Shown one piece after another: positions 20,906 through 22,825 of a stretch of 64,000 bases of DNA. Position numbers and translations under genes: made by a program. Numbering within the stretch: the stretch's first letter is position 1; every line of letters begins with the position of its first letter. The DNA lies in assembly GCF_036507355.1 (NCBI RefSeq), contig NZ_AP027877.1; one strand, 5' to 3'. The stretch comes from Escherichia coli. GTDB taxonomy: Bacteria; Pseudomonadota; Gammaproteobacteria; Enterobacterales; Enterobacteriaceae. The notes beneath the pieces were generated by a model. That model did no database searches. It saw only the letters and a program-made list of their open reading frames with translations, and was not told the DNA's origin.

Positions 20906-21442
20906 TGATGAATATAATCAGACTTTATATTTATCCGTTATTTCTCGGCTTTGTTATTGTGCCGTTGTTGGTGTGGCCGATGGTGGTTGCGCTGGCTGCT
21001 TGTATTATCACGCTGAGTTTTCTGGGGGAAATGCTGTTCTCAATCCCGCTCATGATCAGGCGTATTTCACTTCTGCAATTACAACTTTGGTTATCGGCTG
21101 AATATGCGCTTTTCTTCTGTGTAATGTGTTGCGTTGGTTGGCAATTTACTCGTAGAACTCAATCTGAATTGAAAAGCAGGCTCCATTGTTGGTTGGTATT
21201 CGCACCGGTCTATTTATGGTTGATCCTCTGGAATATCATTTTTTACATCGCGCCAGCGAAAATTGCGTTGCTGGAAAGTATCCGCAATTTCTTTCTGCTT
21301 GTTGTCTGGCTACCCCTGAATTTTTCGCCATTTTGGCCTCAGCCGTGGACGGATTTTATCGGTCCAATAAGCGCACAGTGAGGTAGCCTGAGTTTAACGG
21401 ACACTCCTTCCTGAAATAGAATGGCATCAGAAGGAGCTAATA

Positions 21443-21745
21443 ATGAGCAGAAAAACCCAACGTTACTCTAAAGAGTTCAAAGCCGAAGCTGTCAGAACGG
21501 TTCTTGAAAATCAACTTTCGATCAGTGAAGGCGCTTCCCGATTATCTCTTCCTGAAGGCACTTTAGGACAATGGGTTACCGCCGCCAGAAAAGGGCTCGG
21601 TACTCCTGGTTCCCGCACGGTGGCTGAACTGGAATCTGAAATTCTGCAACTGCGTAAGGCGTTAAATGAAGCTCGCCTTGAGCGAGATATATTAAAAAAA
21701 GCAACAGCGTATTTTGCACAGGAGTCGCTGAAAAATACGCGTTAA
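21443..21745 (+). CDS. IS3-family transposase OrfA (HTH DNA-binding)
   Basis: 100-aa ORF MSRKTQRYSKEFKAEAVRTV... with a leucine-zipper-like C-terminus. Confidence 0.85.
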   Translation: MSRKTQRYSKEFKAEAVRTVLENQLSISEGASRLSLPEGTLGQWVTAARKGLGTPGSRTVAELESEILQLRKALNEARLERDILKKATAYFAQESLKNTR

Positions 21746-22599
21746 TCGAACAATGGCGACAACAATTTCCCATTGAAGCGATGTGTCAGGTATTTGGTGT
21801 ATCCAGGAGCGGTTATTACAACTGGGTACAGCATGAACCCTCAGACAGAAAACAAAGTGATGAGCGGCTAAAACTGGAGATTAAGGTGGCACATATCCGC
21901 ACTCGCGAAACATATGGAACCCGGCGGCTCCAGACGGAGCTGGCAGAGAATGGCATCATCGTTGGTCGTGACCGACTGGCACGTCTTCGTAAGGAGCTAA
22001 GGCTACGCTGTAAGCAGAAACGCAAGTTCAGAGCGACTACGAACTCGAACCACAATCTGCCAGTTGCGCCAAATCTGCTGAACCAGACGTTCGCTCCTAC
22101 AGCACCAAATCAGGTCTGGGTGGCGGACCTGACGTATGTTGCCACACAGGAGGGATGGTTGTACCTCGCTGGCATCAAAGATGTTTATACGTGCGAAATT
22201 GTCGGCTACGCCATGGGAGAGCGCATGACAAAAGAGCTGACAGGTAAAGCCCTGTTTATGGCGCTCAGGAGCCAGCGCCCACCTGCCGGGCTAATCCACC
22301 ACTCTGATCGAGGTTCACAGTACTGCGCATACGATTACCGGGTCATACAGGAGCAGTTTGGTCTGAAAACATCAATGTCGCGTAAAGGTAACTGTTACGA
22401 CAACGCTCCGATGGAAAGCTTCTGGGGAACGCTGAAAAATGAGAGCCTGAGCCACTATCGTTTTAATAACCGGGATGAAGCCATCTCAGTAATACGGGAA
22501 TACATTGAGATTTTCTACAATCGTCAGCGTCGTCACTCTCGTCTGGGGAATATCTCCCCGGCAGCCTTCAGGGAAAAATATCATCAGATGGCTGCTTAA
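21700..22599 (+). CDS. IS3-family transposase OrfB (DDE catalytic domain), expressed as an OrfAB fusion by -1 frameshifting; first in-frame ATG at 21781
   Basis: The -1 frame is open from 21700; motifs D...D...E (VWVADLTYV, HHSDRGSQY, CYDNAPMESFWGTLK); slippery A7G run at 21694-21701 inside orfA. Confidence 0.8.
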   Translation, partial: SNSVFCTGVAEKYALIEQWRQQFPIEAMCQVFGVSRSGYYNWVQHEPSDRKQSDERLKLEIKVAHIRTRETYGTRRLQTELAENGIIVGRDRLARLRKELRLRCKQKRKFRATTNSNHNLPVAPNLLNQTFAPTAPNQVWVADLTYVATQEGWLYLAGIKDVYTCEIVGYAMGERMTKELTGKALFMALRSQRPPAGLIHHSDRGSQYCAYDYRVIQEQFGLKTSMSRKGNCYDNAPMESFWGTLKNESLSHYRFNNRDEAISVIREYIEIFYNRQRRHSRLGNISPAAFREKYHQMAA

Positions 22600-22825
22600 A
22601 AAAAGAACAAATGGTAGTGTCCGCTATTGCCAGTACACCTCACAGCTTGGTTTTGCGTTGGGATATTATTGCCAGTGGCGCAGCAAAAATAGATGCCAGA
22701 TACGGAAGTGGAGTGAGTGGGGAACGTGCTTAAGTTTTGTTACGTTGGGTATGATGGCGTGGGCTTTGCGGTAATTCCCTGAATCAAAAAGTAGGTCAGA
22801 TTGTTGACAACGTGGCACTTTGTTC

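Follow-up and report, generated by a model that had tools for sequence, protein, structure and literature searches.

An intact IS600 copy in a hypothetical membrane-protein gene of Escherichia coli, with its frameshift site and a downstream hairpin conserved in relatives

Introduction

Insertion sequences of the IS3 family, of which IS911 is the paradigm, are flanked by short direct repeats of 3-5 bp generated by duplication of their target. In IS911, the heptamer A_AAA_AAG is reportedly assisted by an SD-like element located upstream and by a stimulator in the form of a three-way junction (Rettberg et al. 1999). IS600, long known from Shigella and E. coli, is a further member of the family; E. 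coli catalogues list its genes under the names insM' / insN.

Expansion of five insertion sequences, IS600 among them, shaped the genomes of Shigella and EIEC, and both the spread of IS600 and its recent activity have been documented in Shigella (PMC7373316). The element uses a 3-nt target sequence and its excision requires an active transposase (PMC9397093). Its frameshift signal is already catalogued in the literature: Sharma et al. 2014 list IS600 under cluster A_AAA_AAA_1 with the values 86, 385 and 100 and regard it as one of the cases in which -1 PRF is proven and a stem-loop acts as stimulator, the heptamers A_AAA_AAG or A_AAA_AAA making up 72% of those of IS1/IS3-family elements (PMC4066793).

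Results and Discussion

Identity and boundaries of the element

Positions 21379-22642 of the 64-kb window (the whole stretch of E. coli DNA analysed) almost certainly hold an intact copy of IS600 (IS3 family, IS3 group), inserted with a CAG duplication into the gene of a 200-aa hypothetical membrane protein. The element and its ends are as follows.

21379..22642, + strand: IS600, complete element of 1,264 bp (full-length identity and empty-site comparison)
21379..21407, + strand: left terminal inverted repeat (IRL), TGAGGT...CGGACACT, matching the reverse complement of the right end
22614..22642, - strand: right terminal inverted repeat (IRR), ending ...ACCTCA

All 1,264 of the 1,264 bp (100%) are identical to loci that RefSeq labels 'IS3-like element IS600 family transposase', and those pINV copies that PMC7283534 treats as IS600 are likewise 100% identical over 1,264 bp. 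This full-length identity to many copies bears out the preliminary description of the element as complete, in which it had been given no name. IS600 copies with at least 80% of the element covered occur in 1,613 of the complete E. coli genomes (5,426 in all); further copies are found on Shigella and E. coli plasmids.

The element starts with TGAGGT and ends with ACCTCA (5'-TG...CA-3'). Its terminal inverted repeats are imperfect, as initially described, with 20 of the first 29 positions matching, the shared CGGACACT core included. Membership of the IS3 family, also proposed at the outset, agrees with the NCBIfam model NF033516 (414.5 bits, cutoff 160, with positions 1-369 of the 369 in the profile covered), with Pfam domains in both ORFs and with the set of features by which the family is recognised, namely ORF layout, heptamer, HTH and zipper OrfA, DDE OrfB, TG...CA repeats and a short duplication. 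No result speaks against the identification, and the copy is ordinary and already described.

Target site and disrupted host gene

A query composed of the IS and both flanks gave a listing dominated by IS and REP matches. The empty site was searched with a synthetic query in which the flanks were joined across one CAG, and was found in E. coli BL21, C and others as one ungapped match of 99.7-99.8% identity. In BL21 it reads AGCGCACAG|CTTGG, with one CAG. Because the site is uninterrupted in BL21 and others, the exact ends of the element are proven, and so is the 3-bp CAG duplication that had been proposed. By chance alone, CAG would stand at both ends with a frequency of 1/64.

21376..21378, no strand: target duplication CAG, left copy (single CAG in the BL21 empty site)
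22643..22645, no strand: target duplication CAG, right copy (empty-site comparison)
20905..21378, + strand: disrupted host gene, 5' part (200-aa hypothetical membrane protein; WP_000981057.1 in BL21)
22646..22774, + strand: disrupted host gene, orphaned 3' part (ORF restored when the flanks are joined)

The insertion lies at codon 158, in the 3' third of a gene of an E. coli/Shigella chromosome that has two PstS-like genes on one side and glpD on the other. Since the first bases of the IS, TGA, form a stop codon, the host product is cut to 158 aa, while the joined flanks encode a 200-aa ORF with a single residue different from the BL21 protein. Locally, the copy accounts for the truncated gene.

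The 5,426 complete E. coli genomes all lack IS600 at this site, whereas it is present there in a few draft assemblies and read sets; several public assemblies (L003, L008, L009) have the identical IS600 junction, and the insertion marks a lineage that is missing from the complete E. coli genomes. Other contigs with the exact 158-aa truncated ORF (L004-L007 and L010) were rejected as proof of a widespread insertion because they end at the site, or 1 nt past it, without IS600 sequence; three of them run on into the empty-site base C. The IS600 repeat breaks short-read assemblies at this locus.

Also, in several assemblies of another E. coli background, the break falls no more than 1 nt from the same target site.

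Coding potential and expression signals

Both orfA and orfB, the latter in the -1 frame, lie on a single + strand transcription unit. The candidate signals preceding orfA, the gene itself and the catalytic residues of OrfB are located as follows.

21394..21422, + strand: promoter-like site TTAACG-17-TAGAAT, inside/beside IRL (consensus scan, 9/12 matches)
21431..21436, + strand: putative ribosome-binding site AAGGAG, following the promoter-like site (read from the sequence)
21443..21745, + strand: orfA, 100 aa, with HTH_Tnp_1 DNA-binding domain and C-terminal heptad (leucine-zipper-like) region
21700..22599, + strand: orfB part of OrfAB, -1 frame, with internal ATG at 21781, stop TAA at 22597-22599, HTH_21 and rve core
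22126..22128, + strand: catalytic D, OrfB D143 / OrfAB D229, invariant in 64 OrfB sequences, aligned with HIV-1 IN D64
22306..22308, + strand: catalytic D, OrfB D203 / OrfAB D289, conserved in at least 90% of the 64 sequences, aligned with HIV-1 IN D116
22414..22416, + strand: catalytic E, OrfB E239 / OrfAB E325, invariant in the 64 sequences, aligned with HIV-1 IN E152

The promoter-like site and the AAGGAG may function in the expression of orfA, one such promoter-like site being about the chance expectation. A putative circle-junction promoter, TTGCCA-18-TAGCCT across IRR-CAG-IRL, is weak (8/12 consensus matches), and to ascribe a role to it would be speculation.

OrfA is recognised by the Pfam model PF01527 (HTH_Tnp_1, 73.6 bits). 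Its length of 100 aa and its heptad-like leucine region, both noted earlier, are upheld: the hydrophobic heptad residues 63/67/70/74/77/84 are kept in 54 OrfA homologues, suggesting that the C-terminus is a putative leucine zipper of the type expected in the IS3 family.

OrfB is matched by the Pfam models rve (91.8 bits), HTH_21, rve_2 and rve_3. The DDE motifs attributed to it form a conserved triad, spaced D-59-D-35-E, that aligns with integrase catalytic residues, and K246 at E+7 is invariant in the same 64 sequences and aligns with HIV-1 IN K159. Decayed relatives with stop codons were screened out before the protein alignment, and the comparison with the HIV-1 IN core was made by hhalign against a hand-entered sequence. 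An AlphaFold model of OrfB (pLDDT 83) has its best fold matches in the IstA, TnsB and MuA transposases and retroviral integrases, with Foldseek E values of 1e-9 to 1e-5 against DDE transposases/integrases. A sequence search of the PDB with OrfB alone gave no matches, and a profile of the 64 OrfB sequences gave weak integrase matches (E 0.15-0.5). Matches of Nop56 in the PDB (E 0.012) were regarded as chance.

Frameshift site

21694..21700, + strand: slippery heptamer A_AAA_AAA (next base G21701), with the -1 shift placed after OrfA codon 86

The orfB frame is -1 relative to orfA and overlaps it by 64 nt. It is open into orfB, as the preliminary description had it, with the opening already at 21682 and not just at 21700. 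The A7 at 21694-21700 is the sole A-run of at least 6 in this overlap, and from G21701 it is 42 nt to the orfA stop at 21743. The A7G run had thus been correctly positioned at 21694-21701, but the orfA-frame reading is TT-A AAA AAA GCA, so that the phased heptamer is A_AAA_AAA and not A_AAA_AAG. The expected OrfAB fusion by a -1 shift has 385 aa and equals, residue for residue, an NCBI protein named IS600 family transposase; the RefSeq note on identical DNA reads 'programmed frameshift'.

The arrangement recurs in relatives of the element. In 74 of 76, orfB lies in the -1 frame, 72 of these having an A6-7(G/T) run in the overlap. The run is conserved in 73 of the 76, and 71 of the 73 have it in the correct phase, as against one third expected by chance. 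About a third of the relatives have A_AAA_AAG instead of A_AAA_AAA.

Ribosomal slippage at 21694-21700 is inferred from this conservation and supported by the literature. OrfAB could alternatively arise by transcriptional slippage, RNA polymerase adding an A on A7 and fusing the frames in the mRNA. Homopolymeric A runs are able to cause such slippage, and AAAAAAA occurs less often than expected in each of the three frames of E. coli genes, possibly due to it; transcriptional slippage is also used by some IS3-family elements, according to PMC6211511 and to Baranov et al. 2005 as cited in PMC4066793. However, the run here has just 7 nt, its conserved codon phase is relevant to tRNA re-pairing and irrelevant to polymerase slippage, a hairpin is conserved at the canonical 6-nt spacing, and the literature treats IS600 as ribosomal -1 PRF (PMC4066793). 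Fusion in the mRNA is therefore considered highly improbable.

Downstream hairpin

21703..21743, + strand: hairpin with core stem 21707-21715/21732-21740 and outer pairs 21703-05/21741-43

The preliminary description had suggested looking for a stimulatory structure in 21702-21780. The hairpin found there is conserved in relatives and weak thermodynamically. Its core starts 6 nt past the heptamer, its 3' arm abuts the orfA stop, and its dG is -13.1 kcal/mol. Against background, the thermodynamics are not significant over 99 nt (21702-21800, z -0.71), and z is -2.3 over 181 nt. The pairing was evaluated in 67 aligned sequences, IS600 and 66 relatives of 55-69% OrfB identity.

Both arms encode conserved motifs, A-Y-F-A in OrfA and K/R-Y-A in OrfB, so some of the pairing could be a coding by-product. 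Taken further, this would mean that the hairpin is not a stimulator, its complementarity reflecting the overlapping coding motifs, and that the heptamer alone drives the shift. The location of the arms in doubly coding, highly conserved sequence favors that reading. Yet the proportion of paired cells across the 67 sequences is 79.6%, against 17-50% in slid controls. Pair 20-43 changes in a compensatory manner from C-G to U-A in 6 sequences and to U-G in 3, with one mismatch in 67; in the 5' arm the change is synonymous (TAC to TAT), and in the 3' arm it replaces Arg by Lys. The covariation comes mainly from two or three pairs and, like the weak single-sequence z-scores, leaves room for a by-product; the 6-nt spacing, for its part, is maintained in both motif classes, and the IS600 cluster is stem-loop-stimulated according to PMC4066793. 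Taking these points together, we consider a purely coding origin of the pairing rather unlikely and favor a stimulatory hairpin.

RNAalifold retains just a 6-bp core, with a total energy of -4.08 kcal/mol, and conservation of the full 14-pair stem is therefore uneven, with pairs 22-41, 23-40, 11-51 and 12-50 disrupted in at least half of the sequences. No pseudoknot is evident, the conserved structure being the hairpin of ~41 nt, for which Rfam has no model. The ALIL pseudoknot (Rfam RF01497) was rejected, as its score of 14.3 bits is below the gathering score of 50 and its match was driven by a coding motif in the unpaired part of the model.

Conservation of the hairpin across a broad clade backs a claim on IS600 that the literature cites only as unpublished data. 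We are evenly divided on the wider proposals that the hairpin is a clade-wide -1 stimulator common to IS600 and its relatives, which could be curated as a new cis-regulatory RNA family, and, separately, that the target site is an insertion hot spot, to which the assemblies that break beside it could point.

Proposed expression and transposition

Normal translation yields the 100-aa OrfA with its HTH and zipper. Some ribosomes would slip back one base on A_AAA_AAA, helped by the hairpin 6 nt downstream, and enter orfB to produce the 385-aa OrfAB transposase. By analogy with IS911, IS2, IS3 and IS150, OrfAB would bind the TG...CA inverted repeats and, by means of a D-D-35-E RNase-H-like active site, carry out copy-out/paste-in transposition in which a figure-of-eight and then a circle are formed as intermediates. 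As in those elements, a regulatory role may fall to OrfA and possibly also to OrfB.

Judged from its sequence, the element can reasonably be regarded as potentially active. The copy could instead be intact in sequence and silent in its host, owing to low expression, host factors or lack of targets, and persist as a fixed lineage marker. Such a state would fit the single IS600 copy in the 64-kb window, the promoter-like site that is no better than chance, and the junction shared by L003, L008 and L009, which suggests an inherited, stable insertion; fixation at one site is, however, compatible with an active copy-out/paste-in element. Moreover, ORFs, inverted repeats, frameshift signal and DDE triad are intact here, and they are identical to those of copies that, in other genomes, occur in high number per genome or have moved recently. 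A silent copy is on these grounds quite improbable, and potential activity is the preferred reading. The significance of the locus beyond annotation is very little.

Comparison with related elements

IS911 resembles IS600 in the -1 layout of orfA/orfB, in an OrfA with HTH and leucine zipper and a DDE OrfAB, and in its TG...CA ends, 3-bp duplication and presumed copy-out/paste-in through a circle. The two differ in that IS600 has A_AAA_AAA and a simple hairpin and in their clearly different protein sequences; also, IS600 apparently has no conserved SD, if the N/Y cluster entry in the supplement of PMC4066793 is read correctly.

IS3, with a pseudoknot, and IS3411, with the ALIL pseudoknot (RF01497), belong to the same family and likewise have the stimulator just 3' of an A-rich heptamer. 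The coding motif GCGUAUUUUGC is common to the stimulators of IS600 and IS3/IS3411, whereas the structure in IS600 is a hairpin rather than a pseudoknot.

IS600-like elements of the IS3 family (L011-L090), with 55-69% OrfB identity, occur in Betaproteobacteria, Deltaproteobacteria, Nitrospira and others. They share with IS600 the -1 layout, the A6-7G motif and its phase, the position of the hairpin and the DDE and K residues, and differ from it by diverged sequence and by the decay of some copies.

The closest described system is IS600 of Shigella sonnei / E. coli itself, with the same DNA, OrfAB, OrfA, shift point and 3-bp duplication as found here. The present copy differs from known IS600 copies in its insertion site only.

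Identity and organization of the element

The element at 21379-22642, the only copy in the 64-kb window, is IS600 (IS3 family, IS3 group), already known, frameshift signal included. RefSeq loci annotated as 'IS3-like element IS600 family transposase' and 'programmed frameshift' are 100% identical to it across all 1,264 bp, which bears out the IS3-family assignment made from sequence alone in the preliminary description and gives the element its name. Its features, and the nearest downstream gene, are as follows.

Features of the IS600 copy and its surroundings
21379-22642: IS600 element, 1,264 bp, 5' TGAGGT and 3' ACCTCA
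21376-21378 and 22643-22645: CAG, directly flanking both element ends
21394-21422: candidate promoter-like TTAACG-17-TAGAAT upstream of orfA
21431-21436: ribosome-binding site AAGGAG upstream of orfA
21443-21745: orfA, 100 aa, stop at 21743-21745
21682-22599: orfB frame, open in -1 relative to orfA, TAA stop at 22597-22599
22989-24509: glpD, minus strand

The ends, inverted repeats and CAG flanks described earlier are all present at these positions. The inverted repeats are imperfect, 20 of the first 29 positions agreeing between ends, and share the core CGGACACT. The promoter upstream of orfA is only a candidate, since shuffled sequences yield about one such site. A second A7 run (22598-22604) overlaps the orfB TAA just inside the right inverted repeat and is followed by no notable open frame; it is probably incidental.

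Target site and disrupted gene

E. coli strains, among them B and C, contain a single ungapped match, 99.7-99.8% identical, to a synthetic empty-site query made by fusing both flanks with one CAG. BL21 reads AGCGCACAG|CTTGG, whereas the window reads AGCGCACAG|IS600|CAGCTTGG. Because the uninterrupted site with one CAG exists in these strains, the exact ends and the 3-bp duplication are proven rather than inferred, and the CAG duplication proposed earlier is real. The insertion disrupts a gene for a 200-aa hypothetical membrane protein (WP_000981057.1), located 3' of two PstS-like genes and convergent with glpD. The gene is interrupted after codon 158, the new stop being TGA, the first three bases of IS600. 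The glpD promoter is unaffected, since this minus-strand gene ends about 350 bp past the element.

Between the disrupted gene and glpD lie repeats (22822-22904) that look like REP/BIME-type palindromic sequences, probably the reason why flank searches of E. coli genomes returned more than 100,000 match places. Rfam matches here are to the ES036 (CssrF) sRNA on the plus strand (22862-22904; 43.6 bits against a gathering score of 37.6) and, partially, to naRNA4 on the minus strand (22822-22858).

Frameshift signal

The orfA/orfB overlap spans 64 nt, from the opening of the -1 frame at 21682 to the orfA stop, and its sole A-run of at least six is the A7 at 21694-21700, followed by G. The A7G slippery run of the preliminary description is thus present, but because the orfA frame reads TT-A AAA AAA GCA, the phased heptamer is A_AAA_AAA; likewise, the -1 frame is open into orfB as claimed, and already from 21682, ahead of 21700.

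The signal was compared in 80 IS600-like relatives from Betaproteobacteria, Deltaproteobacteria, Nitrospira and other groups. Of these, 76 have an orfA match and 74 of the 76 keep orfB in the -1 frame; in 72 of those 74 the overlap contains an A6-7(G/T) run. The run is in the correct phase in 71 of 73 (A7 as A_AAA_AAA in 48, A6G as A_AAA_AAG in 23), against a chance expectation of one third. As tRNA re-pairing depends on phase, this conservation favours ribosomal over transcriptional slippage. Decay is seen in some relatives: internal stops interrupt orfB in L041 and L052, the -1 arrangement is gone from L046 and L054, and L062 has no A-run.

A search for a stimulatory structure 3' of the heptamer found a predicted hairpin at 21703-21743 (dG -13.1 kcal/mol), with a 9-bp core pairing 21707-21715 with 21732-21740 and starting 6 nt past the heptamer. 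Its single-sequence z-scores (-0.71 and -2.3) are unremarkable alone. Across a 67-sequence alignment the 14-pair stem has 79.6% of its cells paired, and sliding the partners by 1-3 columns gives 17-50%; the stem tested was, however, drawn from the window itself, and both of its arms are conserved sequence that codes in two frames. At pair 20-43, 57 sequences have C-G, 6 have U-A, 3 have U-G and 1 has a mismatch, and double changes also occur at pairs 23-40 and 12-50; RNAalifold keeps just a 6-bp core. Rfam holds no family for the IS600 hairpin, and its sole match there, the ALIL pseudoknot, was rejected (14.3 versus 50 bits, due to a coding motif).

Transposase

OrfA carries HTH_Tnp_1 (73.6 bits) and the -1 frame product HTH_21, rve, rve_2 and rve_3. 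The heptad-like leucine region noted earlier in OrfA corresponds to conserved hydrophobic positions 63/67/70/74/77/84 in its C-terminal third, ending just ahead of the shift at K86. Translation of 21443-21700 followed by 21700-22599 gives a 385-aa fusion that matches NCBIfam NF033516 'IS3 family transposase' over its full length (414.5 bits, cutoff 160) and is identical at every residue to the NCBI-named IS600 family transposase of S. sonnei and E. coli; the OrfAB product predicted earlier is therefore exactly this protein.

The DDE motifs previously claimed were recovered as a triad when 64 intact OrfB sequences, sharing 55-67% identity with that of the window, were aligned: D143, E239 and K246 never vary and at least 90% of the sequences keep D203, with spacing D-59-D-35-E and K at E+7. 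In a profile comparison these residues align with D64, D116, E152 and K159 of HIV-1 integrase (E = 0.009, with the integrase core sequence entered by hand). A PDB search with the single OrfB sequence gave no match, and one with the OrfB profile gave weak matches to ASV/RSV integrase (E 0.15-0.5). The AlphaFold model (pLDDT 83, pTM 0.73) has the expected β-β-β-α-β-α-β core, its closest folds by Foldseek being IstA, TnsB, MuA and the RSV, HIV-2 and HTLV-2 integrases (E 3e-9 to 1e-5).

Occurrence of the insertion

The flanks (1-21378 and 22643-47642) are collinear with the E. coli glg-glpD-malT region, with a best identity of 98.7-98.8% among 5,426 complete genomes. The occupied site is absent from all 5,426 complete E. 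coli genomes searched, and the source lineage, poorly represented among them, may be Shigella/EIEC-like or a rare E. coli. The junction is present in three public sequences: GCA_905398585.1 (L003) spans the left junction at 99.98% identity, SRR20550224 (L008) runs from the flank through the entire IS600 at 100%, and L009 has the same left junction at 99.5%.

Other contigs encoding the exact 158-aa truncated product end at the site or 1 nt past it, without IS600 sequence. L005 and L007 stop precisely at ...CACAG; L004, L006 and L010, which come from a different E. coli background, extend 1 nt beyond the 21378/21379 insertion point and finish in ...GCGCACAGC, their final base being the empty-site C where IS600 has T. 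Lacking IS600 sequence, and with three continuing into the empty-site base, these contigs were rejected as evidence of the same insertion; their ends could reflect an independent insertion 1 bp off, another repeat or assembler behaviour.

Lineage differences are concentrated in the PstS-like genes 5' of the insertion (18300-20000; L005 reaches 70 mismatches per 500 nt), and the second PstS-like ORF (19850-20905) is called as 351 aa in the window and L003 and as 330 aa in other assemblies, which suggests that this stretch varies locally or recombines. Direct repeats at 16736-17828 and 34924-36007 (72-73% identical, about 18.2 kb apart) were rejected as mobile DNA, being located in the paralogous phosphorylase genes glgP and malP.

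Proposed mechanism and comparison with known IS600 copies

To the observed anatomy, identity, duplication, domain content and conserved frameshift signal can be added a proposed mechanism, in which the hairpin would help ribosomes to slip -1 on A_AAA_AAA once codon 86 has been read, producing OrfAB. Judging from the family, OrfAB would bind the inverted repeats and promote copy-out/paste-in transposition via a circle, and OrfA may act as a regulator. A candidate circle-junction promoter (TTGCCA-18-TAGCCT) agrees at only 8 of 12 positions.

IS600 copies spanning at least 80% of the element occur in 1,613 of the 5,426 complete E. coli genomes (median 2 and maximum 43 places per genome with any match). 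Plasmids of Shigella sonnei, S. flexneri, S. boydii and EIEC carry copies that are identical or 99%+, and the pINV copies among these matches are treated as IS600 in PMC7283534. All Shigella species show expansion of five insertion sequences, one of them IS600, with recent activity (PMC7373316). In STEC O121:H19 it lies in lacZ with a 3-nt target sequence, and its IEE-mediated excision needs active transposase (PMC9397093). The cluster A_AAA_AAA_1 of Sharma et al. 2014 (PMC4066793; insM', IS3/grpIS3/IS600) is listed there as proven -1 frameshifting with stem-loop stimulation, citing unpublished data, and its values of 86, 385 and 100 agree with the codon of the shift and the lengths of the fusion and of OrfA derived independently here.
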